Source: a virus
Taxonomy: Duplodnaviria; Heunggongvirae; Uroviricota; Caudoviricetes
Virus record (IMG/VR): IMGVR_UViG_2913123054_000006
Span: 1 to 10,322 of that record
DNA: 10,322 nucleotides
Reading direction: 5' to 3' (one strand)
Shown here: in pieces, positions 1,459 through 10,322 of the stretch
How positions within the stretch are numbered: the stretch's first letter is position 1
Layout of the letters: the number at the start of each line of letters is the position of its first letter
Notes under the pieces: model-generated
What the model saw: only the letters and a program-made list of their open reading frames with translations
The model's database searches: none
Told to the model about the DNA's origin: nothing
Made by a program: the position numbers and the translations under genes

Positions 1459-1866
1459 ATGAACGAGAAAACTTTAGGTCAACGAATTAGAGAAAGACGC
1501 AAACAGGTTGGCTTAAGTCAAAACGATTTAAGCAAGGCTGCTGGCGTATCTGGCTCATCAATTTCATTGTGGGAAAGTGACCATACAGCCCCGCGCGGGC
1601 AAAATTTGCATCGCCTAGCCGAGGTATTGCAATGCTCACCGACTTGGATACTGTTTGGCGACGAGGATAAAACACCGGATCCCCCAGTTGCACTCAACAA
1701 CGCCTTAGACTTATCGGAAGATGAGTTTGAGATGTTGCGATTATATCGCGCACTACCAAAATCAGAGCAACAAGCACAAATCAGCGAACTTCGTGCCCGC
1801 GTTGAGAATTTTAATCGCCTATTCACCGAGCTACTAGAAGCTCGCAAACGTAATAAGCATCAATAA
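1459..1866 (+). CDS. racR: CI-like prophage repressor, XRE-family HTH (RacR-like); no peptidase S24 domain evident
   Basis: Track ORF, 135 aa. N-terminal HTH_3 signature QRIRERRKQVGLSQNDLSKAAGVSGSSISLWESD. Divergently oriented to the cro-like gene across a short operator-containing intergenic region (classic cI/cro layout). No in-frame upstream start (TGA at 1396..1398) and no Shine-Dalgarno within 15 nt of the ATG. Assignment as RacR rests on synteny with ydaS/ydaT, not on recalled sequence. Confidence 0.65.
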   Translation: MNEKTLGQRIRERRKQVGLSQNDLSKAAGVSGSSISLWESDHTAPRGQNLHRLAEVLQCSPTWILFGDEDKTPDPPVALNNALDLSEDEFEMLRLYRALPKSEQQAQISELRARVENFNRLFTELLEARKRNKHQ

Positions 1867-4135: not shown

Positions 4136-7100
4136 ATGAGCACAAAACCACTCTTCCTGTTACGGAAAGCGAAAAAATCATCCGGTGAACCTGACGTCGT
4201 CCTGTGGGCAAGCGACGATTTTGAATCGACCTGTGCCACTCTGGACTACCTGCTCGTTAAGTCAGGTAAAAAACTGAGCAGCTATTTTAAACCTGTTGCC
4301 ACGAATTTTCCTGTCGTTAATGACCTTCCCCCTGAAGGTGAGATCGATTTTACCTGGAGTGAACGCTATCAACTCAGCAAAGACTCCATGACCTGGGAAC
4401 TAAAACCGGGAGCAGCGCCAGACGACGTTCACCATCAGGAGAATGCACCGGAAACCGAAGAACCGGCGGGAGGCCAGGAAGAAAACACACGGGCAGACGC
4501 TCACGGGGATTGCCAGGATTGCGAAATCCCTGTAGCCACACTCAGTCTTACTCATCGTTTCCTTCATCTCTTCTTTTTCGGTCGGATGGAAGATGGAAAA
4601 TACAGCAATCACGCCACGCCGGAACAGCGTAATAACGTCATCCGGATGGAGATGGATACGGAGGATAGCTACCTCCAGAGCCTGCTTACAGCAGTACGTT
4701 CTCATCCTGAACTGGATAAGCTGGCAAACCATCATCTTGGCAGGTTGGCGGAGTCGGTATCCAGAGTGTTTACCCGCACAGAAACCCGTCGCATCAGCCC
4801 TGCTGAATTCGACAAATTCATTTCCACCTGGATGAAAACTGATTATCTGGAGCAGGGATTACTGACAAAAGAGTTGGCGAAGGGAAATTGCGTATCTGAA
4901 ATCAATCGCACCCCGTCGGGCGCAAATGCCGGTGGCGGTATTCTTACCGACCGTGGCGAAGGTTTTGTCCACGATGATGCATCACTGGCGCGCGATGTAG
5001 CCACTGGTGTACTGGCCCGTTCAATGGACGTGGACATCTATAACCTTCATCCGGCACACGCTAAACGCATTGAGGAAATTATCGCTGAAAATAAACCGCC
5101 CTTTTCTGTTTTCCGCGACAAATTCATCACCATGCCTGGCGGGCTGGATTATTCACGCGCCATCGTGGTTGCGTCCGTGAAAGAAGCACCAATTGGGATC
5201 GAGGTCATCCCCGCGCACGTCACTGAATATCTGAACAAAGTACTGACTGAAACCGATCATGCCAACCCTGATCCGGAAATCGTGGATATTGCCTGCGGTC
5301 GCTCCTCTGCCCCGATGCCGCAGCGAGTAACAGAAGAAGGAAAACAGGATGATGAAGAAAAACCGCAACCATCTGGAACAACGGCAGATGAACAGGGAGA
5401 GGCTGAAACAATGGAACCGGACGCAACTGAACATCATCAGGACACGCAGCCGCTGGATGCTCAGTCACAGGTAAATTCTGTTGATGCGAAATATCAGGAA
5501 CTGCGGGCAGAACTCCATGAAGCCCGGAAAAACATTCCATCAAAAAATCCTGTCGATGCCGATAAATTACTTGCTGCATCACGTGGTGAATTTGTTGACG
5601 GAATTAGCGACCCGAACGATCCGAAATGGGTTAAGGGGATCCAGACTCGCGATTCTGTGTACCAGAACCAGCCAGAAACGGAAAAAACCAGCCCGGATGT
5701 GAAACAACCTGAGCCAGTAGTGCAACAGGAACCGGAAATAGTCTGCAATGCCTGCGGTCAGACTGGCGGAGATAACTGCCCTGACTGTGGGGCGGTGACG
5801 GGGGACGCAACATACCAGGAAACATTCGATGAAGAGAATCAGGTTGAAGCTAAGGAAAAAGATCCGGTGGAAATGGAAGGCGCTGAACATCCGCACAATG
5901 AGAATGCTGGCAGCGATCCGCATCGTGATTGCAGTGATGAAACTGGTGAAGCGTCAGCTCCTGTAGCAACTGAAATCATGTGGCCGTCATATTTCGAGCC
6001 TGGCCGCTATGAAAACCTCCCGAACGAGGTTTATCACTCCGCCAACGGAATAAGCAGCACGATGCTGAAGGATGCCCGTATCAGCCTGATGTATTACCAC
6101 GGACGGCACATTGCCGGAACTATTCCGAACGAGGAAAGTGATGTACTGCTGCGTGGGCGGATCATTCACAGCTATGTTCTGGAAACGGATAAATTCGCTG
6201 ATGAATATGCCATTCCGGTACCGGTTCCTGAATATGTGGTTACTACTTCTAGCGAACTGATCGCCATCATTAAAAAACACAATGCCAGTCTGCCAGCACT
6301 GATGACACCAGAGCAGATGAAAGAGTGGATCGAAAGCTACAACAGCACTCTTATACAGCCACTGTCTGTAAGTGCCGGGGCCGAAGAAACAGGCATCCTT
6401 TACGGTTCGCTTCCGGTGGAATTTCGGCGTATTCCTGAGGGGGAAAAACACACAGCATCAGCAATGAAAGCCTGTATTAAAGAATACAACGCAAGCCTCC
6501 CTCCTCTGTTGAAAACCAGTGGAGCACGGGAGCAGCTTCTGGATCAAATTGAAACTGTAGACCCAGAACTGGCAAAAAAAGAACGTGCTAAATCTTTGCC
6601 TTACAACATCAGTGGCACAAAAGAGCAATTAACCGAAATCGCACGGAAAATTCGCCCGGAACTGGTGACACTGGAGGACTGGCAAAAACGCCAGCAAGAA
6701 GAAAATGCCGGGAAAACGTTTATCAGTCCGGATATGTATGAACAGGCAAAAAATATTCACGCGGCACTGCAAAACAATACCGATGCAGCAAGGCTACTTA
6801 ACCACCCGGATCGCAAATCTGAAATCAGCTATTTCGGGTTTGATGAAGAAACCGGGCTGGAAATCAGGGTCCGTCCTGATATCGAAATCCGGCTGCCATA
6901 CGAAAGCATTTGCGCTGACGTGAAGTCAGTCAGCCTCGGTTATGTGCGACAGGAACGACTTAAAGATCGCCTGCACCGTGAAATTATTGAGCGTGATTAT
7001 CACCTCAGCGCCGCAATGTATTGCGATGTGGCAAACCTGGACAAATTTTTCTGGATCTTCGTCAACAAAGATGCTGGCTATCACTGGGTGGCAGTCGTGG

Positions 7101-7267
7101 AAGCCTCGCAGGAACTCCTGGAACTTGGTCGACAGGAATATCGCCGGACGCTACGCCAGATAAACGAAGCCCTGGAGACAAACAACTGGCCAGCACCGAT
7201 TACCGAAAGTTATACCGACGAATTAAACGACTTTGATCTTCGTCGTCTTGAAGCACTGAGCATCTGA
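4136..7267 (+). CDS. recE: RecE-family exodeoxyribonuclease VIII (1043 aa) with a divergent C-terminal PD-(D/E)XK nuclease domain
   Basis: Track ORF with GAGGT SD. N-terminus [26 protein letters not shown]... and the long acidic central region match Rac RecE as I recall it. C-terminal domain carries RecE-like motifs (..RVRPDIEI.., ..ICADVKSVS.., ..[21 protein letters not shown]) but differs from the K-12 C-terminus I remember (..CRCRPDKII.., ..IMDVKTT.., ..[22 protein letters not shown]). Confidence 0.9.
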
Positions 7268-7278
7268 GGAAGGACACA

Positions 7279-8331
7279 ATGAACGAATTAACTCAACAAG
7301 AAAATATTAACTCTAATGTTGCGGTTTTCAGCCCTCAGTCCCTGGCTGCAATTCAGACATTTTCCCAGGTAATGGCTTCCGGCATGGCTACTGTACCGGA
7401 ACACCTCCGGGGAAATCCATCAGACTGCATGGCCATCACCATGCAGGCGATGCAGTGGCAAATGAACCCTTACGCAGTAGCTCAGAAAACTTTCGTTGTG
7501 AATGGTGTGCTCGGATATGAAGCGCAACTGGTTAATGCCGTAATCAGTACTCGTGGGCCGCTAACCGGGCGTATTGAATATGACTGGTTCGGGCCGTGGG
7601 AAAAAATTATCGGGAAATTTGAAATCAGGAAGAGCGACAAAGGGAAAGAATATCGTGTACCTGGCTGGAAGCTGGCCGATGAAAACGGGATCGGTGTTCG
7701 TGTCCAGGCAACACTACGCGGCGAAAGTAAACCACGCGTACTGGAATTACTTCTGGCGCAGGCCAGAACACGTAACTCAACGCTATGGGCCGACGATCCT
7801 CGCCAGCAGCTTGCCTATCTGGCGCTGAAACGCTGGGCGCGCCTTTATTGCCCCGAAGTGATTCTTGGAGTGTACACCAGGGACGAACTGGACGAGCCAC
7901 AGGAAAAAATCATTAATCCGGTTCAGGAACATAAAAACACTTCCGCTTGCCGCGCGGAACGTGAAACAACAATTATTGAGCAGGATGCCGGGGAAAACTG
8001 GATCGATGCTTTCCGTGAACGTATTGAGCAGGCACAAAGCACCGGGGAAACAACAGCACTTCGCCAGGAAGTGGAAGATCATAAAAATACACTTGGCGCT
8101 CTCTATACGGAACTTAAAGGAAAAGTGGTTCAGCGTCATCACCGTCTCAATGCTATTGCCCGTATCGAGAAGATGATAAATGACCTACCTTCTTCAGGTG
8201 ATCCAGAAGCAGAACAAAAATTTACTGCTCTGGAAAATACGCTGAATGCTGCCCGGCCACATCTGGGTGAATTATATGAGGCGTATAAAACGACACTGAC
8301 AGATATGAAACCAGAATATATCGGCTCCTGA
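7279..8331 (+). CDS. Putative phage single-strand annealing protein / recombinase partner of RecE (350 aa); family not assignable without a search, not canonical RecT
   Basis: Track ORF starting 11 nt after the recE stop with GGAAGGA SD, occupying the position recT holds in Rac (recE-recT-lar). Sequence (MNELTQQENINSNVAVFSPQSLAAIQTFSQVMASGMATVPEHLRGNPSDCMAITMQAMQWQMNPYAVAQKTF...) does not match K-12 RecT or lambda Bet as I recall them. Functional call is by synteny only. Confidence 0.5.
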   Translation: MNELTQQENINSNVAVFSPQSLAAIQTFSQVMASGMATVPEHLRGNPSDCMAITMQAMQWQMNPYAVAQKTFVVNGVLGYEAQLVNAVISTRGPLTGRIEYDWFGPWEKIIGKFEIRKSDKGKEYRVPGWKLADENGIGVRVQATLRGESKPRVLELLLAQARTRNSTLWADDPRQQLAYLALKRWARLYCPEVILGVYTRDELDEPQEKIINPVQEHKNTSACRAERETTIIEQDAGENWIDAFRERIEQAQSTGETTALRQEVEDHKNTLGALYTELKGKVVQRHHRLNAIARIEKMINDLPSSGDPEAEQKFTALENTLNAARPHLGELYEAYKTTLTDMKPEYIGS

Positions 8332-8394
8332 TATTGACTTTGGCGGTGTAGCCTCACCGCCATCACAAAATTTTATTTTATGAGAGAAAAGACA

Positions 8395-8589
8395 ATGCGG
8401 TATGAAAAAGTCAAACCATGCCCTTTTTGTGGTTGTCCATCAGTAACGGTGAAAGCCATTTCAGGATATTACCGCGCGAAGTGTAACGGATGCGAATCCC
8501 GAACCGGCTATGGTGGAAGTGAAAAAGAAGCACTCGAACGATGGAATAAACGAACCACTGGAAATAATAATGGAGGTGTTCATGTATAA
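8395..8589 (+). CDS. ralR: Lar/RalR restriction-alleviation protein (64 aa)
   Basis: Track ORF 8380..8589; preferred start ATG 8395 (MRYEKVKPCPFCGCPSVTVKAISGYYRAKCNGCESRTGYGGSEKEALERWNKRTTGNNNGGVHV). CPFCG...C..C zinc-ribbon-like motif. Matches recalled Rac Lar. Confidence 0.85.
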   Translation: MRYEKVKPCPFCGCPSVTVKAISGYYRAKCNGCESRTGYGGSEKEALERWNKRTTGNNNGGVHV

Positions 8590-8770
8590 AATTACCGCCA
8601 CTATTGAAAAGGAAGGTGGCACTCCTACTAACTGGACAAGGTACTCAAAAACAAAATTAACCAAATCAGAATGCAAAAAAATGCTCTCAGGTAAAAAAGA
8701 AGCAGGCGTTTCCAGAGAGCAGAAAGTAAAACTGATAAATTTTAATTGCGAGCAACTTCAGTCCTCGTGA
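8582..8770 (+). CDS. ydaC: YdaC-like small protein (62 aa)
   Basis: Track ORF 8510..8770; preferred start ATG 8582 (MYKITATIEKEGGTPTNWTRYSKTKLTKSECKKMLSGKKEAGVSREQKVKLINFNCEQLQSS) with GGAGGTG SD. Overlaps the lar stop by 8 nt. Position matches ydaC in Rac. Confidence 0.65.
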   Translation: MYKITATIEKEGGTPTNWTRYSKTKLTKSECKKMLSGKKEAGVSREQKVKLINFNCEQLQSS

Positions 8771-8802
8771 ATTGCATTGTATTCAAATTAAAACTTCATA
8801 GC

Positions 8803-8818
8803 TGATTATTAATAATCA
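8803..8818. repeat. Perfect 16-bp palindrome TGATTATTAATAATCA upstream of xis
   Basis: Read directly; its reverse complement is identical. Lies 52 nt upstream of the xis start in the ydaC-xis intergenic region. Function unassigned. Confidence 0.6.
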
Positions 8819-8869
8819 ACATCGGGCGTCAATTTCAGTCTAACATTGGCGCCTGCCAGAGGTGATGCG

Positions 8870-9085
8870 ATGGCACAAGTAATCTTTAATGAAGAGTGGA
8901 TGGTTGAATACGGCCTGATGCTTCGCACTGGTCTGGGGGCCAGACAAATTGAAGCATACCGCCAGAACTGTTGGGTGGAAGGCTTCCACTTCAAACGAGT
9001 ATCTCCTTTAGGGAAGCCAGACAGTAAGCGAGGGATTATCTGGTACAACTATCCAAAGATAAATCAGTTTATCAAAGACTCATGA
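8870..9085 (+). CDS. xisR: Excisionase-like protein (71 aa)
   Basis: Track ORF 8846..9085 begins at TTG; preferred start ATG 8870 ([61 protein letters not shown]...) with GAGGTG 6 nt upstream. Small basic protein directly upstream of, and coupled to, the integrase gene (stop TGA 9083..9085, int ATG 9087). Length matches Rac YdaQ/XisR. Confidence 0.75.
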
Positions 9086-9086
9086 T

Positions 9087-10322
9087 ATGTCTAAATTACC
9101 AACAGGTGTCGAGATTCGAGGTAAATACATTCGCATCTGGTTCATGTTTCGAGGAAAACGATGTCGGGAAACATTGAAAGGCTGGGAGGTTACTAACAGT
9201 AACATTAAAAAGGCCGGGAATTTAAGAGCGTTGATAGTTCATGAAATCAACTCCGGTGAATTTGAGTATTTAAGACGTTTTCCCCAGTCCAGCACTGGGG
9301 CAAAAATGGTGACAACGAGGGTCATAAAAACGTTCGGGGAACTTTGTGATATCTGGACAAAAATTAAAGAGACAGAGTTAACAACAAACACAATGAAGAA
9401 AACGAAATCACAATTAAAAACACTCAGGATAATAATTTGTGAGAGTACCCCTATATCACATATTCGTTATAGCGATATCTTAAACTACCGGAATGAACTG
9501 CTGCATGGAGAAACGCTTTACCTGGATAATCCAAGATCCAACAAAAAAGGAAGAACCGTGCGCACAGTTGATAACTATATAGCCCTGCTCTGTTCGTTGT
9601 TACGTTTTGCGTATCAGTCGGGATTTATATCAACCAAACCATTTGAAGGAGTAAAAAAATTACAGCGAAACAGAATAAAGCCTGATCCGTTATCTAAAAC
9701 AGAATTCAATGCATTAATGGAAAGTGAAAAAGGACAGAGCCAGAACTTGTGGAAATTTGCCGTTTACTCCGGGCTTCGTCACGGGGAACTGGCTGCTCTG
9801 GCGTGGGAGGATGTGGATTTCGAGAAGGGAATTGTGAATGTCAGAAGAAACCTGACGATACTTGATATGTTCGGTCCCCCAAAAACAAATGCGGGGATCC
9901 GGACGGTAACACTACTACAGCCAGCTCTTGAAGCACTGAAGGAGCAATACAAACTGACCGGGCATCATCGCAAAAGCGAAATCACTTTTTATCATCGGGA
10001 GTACGGCAGAACCGAAAAGCAAAAACTGCATTTTGTTTTCATGCCCAGGATGTGTAACGGAAAACAGAAACCTTATTACTCGGTAAGCAGTTTGGGTGCG
10101 AGATGGAATGCAGCAGTAAAACGTGCTGGTATTCGCCGCCGTAATCCGTACCATACGCGACATACTTTTGCCTGCTGGCTGTTGACGGCAGGAGCGAACC
10201 CGGCATTTATAGCCAGCCAGATGGGGCATGAAACTGCGCAGATGGTGTATGAAATTTACGGTATGTGGATTGATGACATGAACGACGAACAGGTAGCTAT
10301 GTTGAATGCGCGGTTATCGTAG
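9087..10322 (+). CDS. intR: Tyrosine-recombinase phage integrase (411 aa) with N-terminal arm-binding domain
   Basis: Track ORF. N-terminus MSKLPTGVEIRGKYIRIWFMFRGKRCRETLKG (arm-type DNA-binding domain). C-terminal catalytic signatures: LRHGELAALAWEDVD (box I Arg), HTRHTFACWLLTAGANP (H-x-x-R), HETAQMVYEIYGMW (His/Tyr). 411 aa as in Rac IntR. Stop TAG is the last codon in the window. Confidence 0.9.
   Translation: MSKLPTGVEIRGKYIRIWFMFRGKRCRETLKGWEVTNSNIKKAGNLRALIVHEINSGEFEYLRRFPQSSTGAKMVTTRVIKTFGELCDIWTKIKETELTTNTMKKTKSQLKTLRIIICESTPISHIRYSDILNYRNELLHGETLYLDNPRSNKKGRTVRTVDNYIALLCSLLRFAYQSGFISTKPFEGVKKLQRNRIKPDPLSKTEFNALMESEKGQSQNLWKFAVYSGLRHGELAALAWEDVDFEKGIVNVRRNLTILDMFGPPKTNAGIRTVTLLQPALEALKEQYKLTGHHRKSEITFYHREYGRTEKQKLHFVFMPRMCNGKQKPYYSVSSLGARWNAAVKRAGIRRRNPYHTRHTFACWLLTAGANPAFIASQMGHETAQMVYEIYGMWIDDMNDEQVAMLNARLS

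Follow-up and report, generated by a model that had tools for sequence, protein, structure and literature searches.

A Rac-type prophage recE allele with an N-terminal platform as in K-12 RecE and a Gifsy-type nuclease domain

The analysed DNA, a stretch of 10,322 nt from a virus record (here called the window), carries a full-length recE gene and, starting 11 nt after its stop codon, a gene for a RecT-family annealase (Table 1). Both lie within an early-left region of Rac type with intR at its end, and ttcA is the site of near-identical copies of the allele in other genomes. The window RecE matches PF06630 (Exonuc_VIII) at aa 2-183 with 218 bits and PF12684 in its C-terminal part with 48.2 bits when the full protein is searched, while PF03837 is found in RecT with 147.5 bits. 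The allele is already deposited and annotated as recE or exodeoxyribonuclease VIII in RefSeq genomes and in phage Rac-SA53, and it is present in 192 of 5426 complete E. coli genomes. Our literature search retrieved no paper on its mosaic structure or on a chimeric origin of K-12 RecE. We are fairly confident that the window contains a recE-recT operon like that of Rac-SA53, intact and belonging to a Rac-type prophage, in which RecE combines a platform shared with K-12 and a Gifsy-type nuclease domain.

Table 1 Features of the recE-recT locus (positions in the window)
Feature	Position	Strand	Basis
recE allele, full length, 1043 aa, ORF intact	4136..7267	+	ORF list and translation; Pfam; RefSeq/Rac-SA53 annotation
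N-terminal block, aa 1-100, common to K-12 RecE, 93% aa	4136..4435	+	Block identity
Second mosaic patch, aa 101-240, no DNA-level homology to K-12, 18% aa	4436..4855	+	Alignment, blastn
Conserved 'platform' region of the N-terminal part, with acidic linker, aa 241-614	4856..5977	+	94% nt vs K-12
Block differing from K-12 Rac (nuclease domain and recT), ~2.4 kb	5966..8340	+	blastn map, junction alignments
C-terminal PD-(D/E)XK nuclease domain, long (Gifsy) subtype, aa 615-1043	5978..7267	+	
H678, equivalent to K-12 H652 (active site)	6167..6169	+	Alignment to 3H4R; family alignment
168-aa all-helical insert, aa 694-861, tandem duplication of ~65-aa unit	6215..6718	+	Repeat score, AF2
Catalytic PD...D-x-K motif: D915 (RPD), D928 and K930 (ADVK)	6878..6925	+	Aligned with K-12 RPD / DVK
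Cognate annealase of the RecT family, 350 aa, with a core (aa 30-209) and a helical extension at the C-terminus (aa 210-350)	7279..8331	+	PF03837
8-bp GC-rich inverted repeat (TGGCGGTG...CACCGCCA), K-12 homology restarts here	8341..8362	+	Junction alignment

K-12 RecE (866 aa, P15032) and the K-12 Rac locus (L002) served as reference. In the block alignment, the window RecE is 93% identical to K-12 RecE at aa 1-100 and 94% at aa 241-606 (93-95% overall), but only 18% identical at aa 101-240. The original prediction that the N-terminal ~600 residues are like canonical RecE therefore holds for the two outer blocks and fails for the patch between them, for which ML35 and Rac-SA53 carry still other alleles. 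From aa 607 to aa 1043 the global alignment yields 18% identity with 38% gaps, and a local alignment of the nuclease domain reaches 29% over 133 aa. The C-terminal domain thus does differ from that of K-12 RecE, and near-identity to K-12 is contradicted by the alignment. Neither close identity to K-12 aa 587-866 nor, with blastn, a DNA match to the K-12-type nuclease domain was found.

At the DNA level, window positions 4856-5965 match K-12 Rac with 94.2% and positions 8341-10322 with 96.1% identity, while blastn gave no match between 5965 and 8341. The K-12 counterpart of this block is L002 6771-8410. Its left joint (~5966-5978) coincides with the boundary between linker and nuclease domain, and its right joint lies 9 nt past the recT stop at an inverted repeat present in both alleles. 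This repeat has a terminator-like look, yet it was not called by the terminator scan and was not accepted as a terminator. The originally assigned start of the variable part, 5950, was within ~15-30 nt of the true joint, whereas its end had been set too early, at the recE stop (7267) instead of beyond recT. The comparison supports a gene that is mosaic relative to K-12, in which nuclease domain and adjacent annealase gene differ as a single contiguous block, as expected if the domain was exchanged together with its annealing partner.

The identity falls abruptly at the left joint, and this is not gradual drift. Both domains match PF12684 and have a common fold and catalytic motif, as would fit a rapid in-place divergence of the C-terminal domain, starting from an ancestor like K-12 and without any exchange. 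However, identity drops from ~94% to <30% within a few codons and is back at 96% nine bases past recT, RecT changes in the same block, and both domains have far nearer kin in other loci, at 52-86% identity for the window type and at 63% for the K-12 type. Because of the breakpoints and the separate sets of close relatives, divergence in place is already refuted, and we assign it a vanishingly small probability. The window recE is a case of ordinary lambdoid phage mosaicism with a neat domain boundary.

The RecE-type character of the C-terminal domain was borne out by a profile search, in which PF12684 scored 51.9 bits (cut-off 26) and its match was interrupted by an insert, giving two stretches. 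All of the predicted landmarks were found, namely RPD at aa 913-915, ADVK at 927-930, QEYRR at 1000 and NNWPAP at 1016. In the PDB, the domain has a sequence match to RecE (3H4R) only, for which an active-site role of H652 in the K-12 protein was described (PMC11611040). Among 17 homologues in the family alignment D915, D928 and K930 are invariant, and H678 is nearly so. The structure model of the whole domain reaches moderate confidence only (pLDDT 69.6), with values <50 for the first 61 and the last 26 residues. The domain has the RecE fold and is a genuine nuclease domain of the RecE type. As in K-12 RecE, it would act as 5'-to-3' exonuclease on double-stranded DNA ends and leave a 3' single strand, which the adjacent RecT would then anneal in a two-component single-strand-annealing recombination.

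Over 98-99% of its length the nuclease domain is 51-53% identical to those of Gifsy-1/2 and mEp237, and it shares 52% identity with a Klebsiella prophage RecE. Gifsy-2 RecE aligns along the full length of the window RecE. The window protein has the long domain with a duplicated ~170-aa insert, fused to a RecE-like N-terminus, and by these sequence features its domain is assigned to the Gifsy-1/2 subtype. Since Rac is often cryptic and an IS3-family element interrupts the recE allele in some O145 genomes, the variant C-terminus might be taken for a decaying, non-functional remnant of a defective prophage. This is very improbable, given that the 1043-aa ORF is intact, that the domain with its insert is largely kept, together with the catalytic residues, across four genera (Escherichia, Salmonella, Citrobacter, Klebsiella), that the allele is 95-99.8% conserved in 190 genomes, and that it occurs in Rac-SA53, whose genome was deposited as that of a phage.

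The insert is located at the position of loop 665-698 of K-12 RecE, which is disordered and lies at the rim of the DNA-entry channel (PMC11611040); according to the alignment, K-12 RecE itself has no such insert. Its internal repeat score of 68 compares with 25 ± 4.8 for shuffled sequences, and none of 500 shuffles reached it. AF2 predicted the insert alone as helical with a pLDDT of 90.6. At the same loop, the family shows graded insert lengths of ~30, 75 and 170 aa, and the insert columns are conserved in the alignment of 17 homologues. The insert is not basic, and Foldseek found no match for it in BFVD at E ≤ 0.001. SAP (PF02037) or SAP_new25 was the top or near-top Pfam match for all four inserts searched, but with E values of 0.05-0.25 and 11.5-13.7 bits these matches stay below the cut-offs (23.9-26.3 bits). 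Since hhalign against a small SAP alignment also gave a probability of only 9% (P 0.0036), a SAP domain label was not adopted. The insert would enlarge the rim loop projecting at the DNA-entry channel, and we infer that it either helps to hold the DNA end or offers a docking site to the long C-terminal domain of its partner RecT.

BLASTP detected no significant match between window RecT and K-12 RecT, while aa 10-349 of window RecT are 48.6% identical to the RecT proteins of Gifsy-2 and mEp237. Nuclease domain and RecT are not always inherited together, since in Rac-SA53 this nuclease domain is accompanied by another RecT core. A strict rule linking the C-terminal tail of RecT to the nuclease type was likewise discarded, as three loci with short exonucleases have a Gifsy-like RecT tail although their exonuclease C-termini are ordinary short-type. 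The pairing of tail and nuclease type is a tendency only.

The original prediction regarded the window allele as the swapped one. Mosaicism relative to K-12 is confirmed, but the direction of the exchange is probably the reverse, with the K-12 allele looking like the rearranged one. The window allele would keep the native architecture of long RecE proteins, and the K-12 allele would most likely go back to an in-frame fusion that placed a short exoVIII-recT operon, until then stand-alone, behind the platform, with the operon's start codon at the joint. RecE-like N-termini carry the long domain in relatives from Citrobacter, Salmonella and Klebsiella with graded divergence. The Citrobacter protein P0121 is 72-78% identical to the window RecE in the N-terminal and 79-94% in the C-terminal part, and P0122, P0123 and Gifsy-2 also have the long domain on a RecE-like N-terminus. 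Outside Escherichia, the K-12-type domain was a stand-alone gene in 74 of 74 loci found; the ORFs are 270-359 aa long (two of them apparently truncated), lack a platform and are closely preceded by an in-frame stop. These stand-alone domains are 47-64% identical to that of K-12, and six Escherichia, Shigella or contaminated-MAG loci carry the domain fused with 98.6-100% identity, so that a gap in identity separates fused and stand-alone loci. Because the K-12-type nuclease domain stands alone everywhere else, the K-12 fusion would have to be secondary.

The exonuclease of phage Edno5 (273 aa) illustrates such a stand-alone gene. It is 63% identical to the K-12 domain, the RecT of this phage is 71% identical to K-12 RecT, and exo and recT overlap by 11 nt (8 nt in K-12). 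Codon I595 (ATA) of K-12 recE coincides with the ATG start of the stand-alone exo genes, and 20 of 21 positions match between K-12 'ATAGAGCCAGGTATTTATTAC' and the stand-alone exo start 'ATGGAGCC...'. Window M615 aligns with K-12 I595; this Met is not conserved in Gifsy-2 and P0121-P0123 and was not accepted as a relic start codon.

In the opposite scenario, a Gifsy-type cassette of nuclease domain and recT entered a Rac prophage of the K-12 kind from some other lambdoid phage, and the window allele is derived. This would be in line with the K-12-type cassette outnumbering that of the window roughly ninefold in E. coli (1750 vs 192 genomes) and with a slot that is clearly exchangeable, as DnaQ-like and lambda Red modules occur at the same joint. 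Moreover, the linker that precedes the joint occurs only in E. coli Rac and is not shared by the Citrobacter/Gifsy relatives; for this reason a secondary insertion at the same joint retains some probability, and since the linker is hypervariable, continuity across the joint is not traceable in outgroups. However, the acquisition needs an illegitimate event at the exact joint of the original K-12 fusion, and that fusion would be secondary anyway. In addition, a neighbor-joining tree of the N-terminal region places the short-type alleles as one tight group inside the long-type ones, which are more diverse. Our argument on direction relies on parsimony and on this tree of eight N-terminal sequences from a recombining region. 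Altogether we judge acquisition by the window allele unlikely, though not negligible, and prefer a secondary fusion in K-12.

The RecE platform is the ~614-aa N-terminal part, comprising PF06630 and the acidic linker, which is common to K-12 RecE. A DnaQ-like exonuclease occupies the same joint in 4089 genomes. For the O157 DnaQ-type exonuclease, platform homology (82% nt) ends at 5961, and for the PapRG Rac allele (88% nt) at 5888; E. coli PapRG-04-4 has a lambda gam-bet-exo module in this slot of its Rac prophage. Since long, DnaQ-type and Red-type alleles use the same joint, the platform seems to work independently of which nuclease follows. We lean slightly towards a broader model, in which the ~610-aa RecE N-terminus is a general platform that receives, in E. 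coli prophages, alternative end-processing modules at one fixed joint: a long PD-(D/E)XK nuclease paired with a long RecT, a short one paired with a short RecT, a 3'-5' exonuclease of the DnaQ-like kind, or lambda Red downstream without any fused nuclease. This model includes K-12 RecE as a secondary fusion, in which the start codon of a once stand-alone exo would survive as I595 (ATA), and the insert as a functional module for DNA-end capture or RecT docking that is missing from the recombineering workhorse.

K-12 RecE/RecT is a standard recombineering tool. A RecET pair that occurs naturally in E. coli and combines the same N-terminus with a different nuclease and annealase provides a ready-made domain-swap control, which addresses the job of the platform and the determinants of RecE-RecT partner specificity. 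It also calls for caution, as the ancestral architecture of the family may differ from that of K-12 RecE. Full-length RecE was found to improve linear-linear recombination (PMC11611040).

The window shares with K-12 Rac the prophage type, the gene order racC-recE-recT-ralR-xis-int and, for near-identical copies of its allele, the site ttcA. Its nuclease domain shares the fold and the H...PD...DxK active site of K-12 RecE (3H4R), but is 160 aa longer and only ~18-29% identical. Window RecT belongs to another lineage than K-12 RecT and is 81 aa longer, and the 11-nt spacer between recE and recT contrasts with an 8-nt overlap in K-12. Gifsy-1 and Gifsy-2 of Salmonella as well as mEp237 resemble the window in having a platform, the long nuclease domain with duplicated insert, the 11-nt spacer, and a long RecT with the conserved C-terminus '...TL.DMKPEY'. 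Their platforms, however, are only ~33-66% identical to that of the window, and they are other prophages at other integration sites. Gifsy RecET is recombination-proficient in vivo when activated, according to the part of PMC8496262 that cites Lemire 2008.

Escherichia phage Rac-SA53 (KU052037) has essentially the same recE allele, with a 98.9% identical nuclease domain in the same genomic context (ttcA/attP just downstream of intR). It differs in aa 101-240 of RecE (49% identical) and in RecT, which is 64% identical overall, with a replaced core and identical last 50 aa. The stand-alone operons for short exonuclease VIII and RecT, such as those in Edwardsiella phage Edno5 and Yersinia phage vB_YenM_29.18, follow the same two-gene logic with enzymes of the same family, but lack platform and insert and are kin of the K-12 cassette, not of that in the window. 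Lambda Exo and Red-beta form a functionally analogous exonuclease-annealase pair, in which Exo belongs to another nuclease family (YqaJ, PF09588) and forms a trimer, compared with a tetramer for RecE (PMC11611040).

The window represents the early-left part of a Rac-type prophage, and near-identical copies adjoin ttcA, the K-12 Rac site, in E. coli ML35 and phage Rac-SA53. Compared with the 866-aa K-12 protein, its RecE is 93% identical over aa 1-100, 18% over aa 101-240, 94% over aa 241-606 and, with a large gap, 18% over aa 607-1043. By blastn, positions 4856-5965 (94.2%) and 8341-10322 (96.1%) align to K-12 Rac with nothing aligning between 5965 and 8341, and the junction alignments show an abrupt transition. 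The original prediction placed a divergent RecE-type nuclease domain at 5950-7267, and the residues it quoted are all present (RPD 913-915, ADVK 927-930, QEYRR 1000, NNWPAP 1016). With alignments, abrupt junctions and motifs in agreement, its observation is therefore confirmed: the C-terminal domain differs from that of K-12 without a DNA match, and the reading of a mosaic recE in which nuclease domain and recT differ together holds. The proposed start was nearly exact, but the end was wrong, as the differing block continues through recT to 8340. Likewise, the 600 N-terminal residues taken as canonical include a second foreign patch at aa 101-240, outside of which they are K-12-like.

Genes and mosaic features of the window
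Feature	Position (nt)	Strand	Product or residues
ydaT	748-1170	minus	
HTH repressor	1459-1866		
recE	4136-7267		1043 aa
second mosaic patch in recE	4436-4855		RecE aa 101-240
CxxC-x7-CxxC motif, acidic linker	5744-5791		RecE aa 537-552
insert in long nuclease domain	6215-6718		RecE aa 694-861
RecT-family gene	7279-8331		350 aa
mosaic joint inside recT, relative to Rac-SA53	7546-7803		RecT aa 90-175
ralR/lar	8380-8589		
DUF1187 gene	between ralR/lar and intR		
intR	9087 to window end		

The second patch has no DNA homology to K-12; here the Rac-SA53 protein is 49% identical and ML35 gives no DNA-level alignment, which makes at least three or four alleles for this stretch of the N-terminal region. 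The linker motif, which resembles a zinc knuckle, is common to K-12 RecE and is missing from the aligned Citrobacter, Gifsy-2, P0122 and P0123 homologues.

The window C-terminal domain scores 51.9 bits against Pfam PF12684, which exceeds the cut-off (K-12 nuclease domain, 102.8 bits), in a match broken into two stretches by an insert, and RecE 3H4R is the only solved structure matched by sequence (E 2e-7). K-12 H652 and the PD...DxK motif align with window H678, D915, D928 and K930, residues that vary little or not at all across 17 homologues. Together, these sequence matches show the domain to be a real RecE-fold nuclease and not a degenerate tail. The insert adds 168 residues at the rim loop, which in K-12 RecE comprises residues 665-698 and is disordered (PMC11611040). 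It consists of a sequence unit duplicated in tandem (local score 68 vs 25 ± 4.8 for shuffles, 0 of 500 reaching 68). The K-12 type has a loop of ∼30 aa here; the relatives P0144, P0146, P0147 and P0149 have ∼75 aa, or one unit, and two units (∼170 aa) occur in the window type, in the Gifsy type and in distant stand-alone enzymes of 430 aa. Modelled alone, the insert is confidently all-helical (pLDDT 90.6), and as a whole it had no match among the known folds searched. Pfam SAP hits in four of four insert sequences (E 0.05-0.25) and an hhalign comparison with a small SAP alignment (probability 9%) were all below threshold. The insert is slightly acidic and may serve DNA-end capture or docking of the cognate RecT.

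The original prediction implied that the window allele is the swapped form. Stand-alone short exonucleases, graded long types and the nesting of alleles point away from this, and the direction is probably the reverse, with K-12 RecE as the chimera. A profile built on the K-12-type (short) domain, searched against GTDB representatives (one genome for each species), returned six loci of 98.6-100% identity fused to the long N-terminus, from E. coli, Shigella, E. ruysiae and two evidently contaminated MAGs. K-12-type recE-recT at 99% on the MAG contigs L011 and L012 ('Proteobacteria bacterium', 'uncultured Roseburia sp.') most likely reflects bins contaminated with E. coli. The other 74 loci (47-64% identity; Edwardsiella, Proteus, Providencia, Pantoea, Aeromonas, Pseudomonas and others) are without exception stand-alone ORFs; they measure 270-359 aa, save for two seemingly cut short. 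Each is preceded within a few codons by an in-frame stop, and none of the 74 resembles the RecE N-terminus. The closest phage relatives are stand-alone genes too. Edno5 encodes an exo of 273 aa that shares 63% identity with the K-12 domain and a RecT that shares 71% with K-12 RecT, and the two genes overlap by 11 nt vs 8 nt in K-12. Met1 of the stand-alone genes aligns with K-12 I595, and K-12 'ATA GAG CCA GGT ATT TAT TAC' agrees in 20 of 21 positions with the 21 nt that open the Lonsdalea gene: its start, ATGGAGCCAGGTATTTATTAC (L024), differs from K-12 recE codons 595-601 (L002, 6783-6803) solely by ATG vs ATA. In this alignment, I595 (ATA) seems to be the relic of a start codon, now internal to the textbook gene.

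RecE-like N-termini carry the long domain at graded divergence, N- and C-terminal identities being 72-78% and 79-94% in Citrobacter (P0121), 19-39% and 59-72% in P0122 and P0123, and 33-64% and 43-59% in Gifsy-2. An NJ tree built on the shared region (nt 4856-5950) places the alleles of the short type, from K-12, S. flexneri and E. ruysiae (97.5-99.8% mutual identity), within the more diverse long-type alleles of the window, ML35 and Rac-SA53 (91-93%). However the window allele arose, K-12 recE must have formed when an exo gene, independent until then, was fused to the N-terminal platform; by parsimony, the window allele is likely the unreplaced form.

The joint after the platform is a general cassette slot for several alternative modules. 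Over 5426 complete E. coli genomes, it is followed by the K-12-type cassette in 1750, the window type in 192, an mEp237-type long domain in 96 and a DnaQ-like 3'-5' exonuclease domain (PF16473; the O157 prophage 814-aa 'exonuclease', without RecT) in 4089. DNA homology to the window stops at 5961 in the DnaQ-type gene vs 5965 in K-12. In the Rac prophage of E. coli PapRG-04-4 (L088, 3501-7144) homology stops at 5888, and a platform ORF truncated at 575 aa, without nuclease domain, precedes lambda-type gam-bet-exo, after which come the usual ralR-xisR-intR. The 814-aa protein of O157:H7 TX 265-1 (L089, 2802-5246) joins the RecE N-terminal region (PF06630) to PF16473, its gene being 82% identical in nucleotides to window 4862-5961; this DnaQ-like module is often multi-copy per genome.

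RecTs beside long RecE (Gifsy-2, mEp237, Rac-SA53) align full-length with the window RecT, including a ∼140-aa C-terminal extension terminating '...TL.DMKPEY', while those beside short exos mostly have the core alone in common (∼aa 2-215). In Rac-SA53, the nuclease domain is 99% identical in amino acids (98.9%) and the RecT core is replaced, aa 91-175 being ∼40% and the last 50 aa 100% identical, which fits the RecT C-terminus as a putative partner-binding module. Since a Gifsy-like RecT tail is found at three short-exo loci, the pairing of tail and nuclease type is a tendency, not a rule. Stand-alone short exos (L024-L078) pair with RecT cores of the K-12 type or the window type; identity to the window core reaches 77%, in Pantoea rodasii (L038), and most window-type cores there bear a third kind of tail, '...LLADF...YKYA...KATDVYLIRK.EL'. 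RecT core, RecT tail and nuclease thus appear to be shuffled semi-independently.

A recent study of lambdoid Rec modules covers RecE of the Rac and Gifsy types, DnaQ-like nucleases and 'RecE-2' proteins that lack a nuclease, and does not analyse how partner-interaction domains are shuffled (PMC12315714); a structural review notes that the N-terminal domain is present in some RecE homologues and absent in others (PMC11611040). In the published literature searched, we found no account of the structure of the window allele or of a chimeric origin of K-12 RecE. Our analysis adds the probable reversal of the swap, the use of one shared joint by several modules, and a duplicated insert located in the rim loop. 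The allele itself is already deposited and annotated; in several O145 genomes an IS3-family transposase splits it (E. coli O145 RM8843-C1, match H36), and the pieces are annotated as two partial proteins. BLASTP gives no significant match between the window RecT and K-12 RecT, although both belong to PF03837. The window recE belongs to the known Gifsy-type subfamily: RecE of Gifsy-1, Gifsy-2, mEp237 and Klebsiella prophages is 51-53% identical over the whole nuclease domain, Gifsy-2 RecE (961 aa) aligns full-length, Gifsy-2 RecT is 48.6% identical, and the recE-recT spacer is 11 nt in the window, Gifsy-2 and mEp237 alike. Gifsy RecET, once activated, is reported to promote recombination (Lemire 2008, as cited in PMC8496262).
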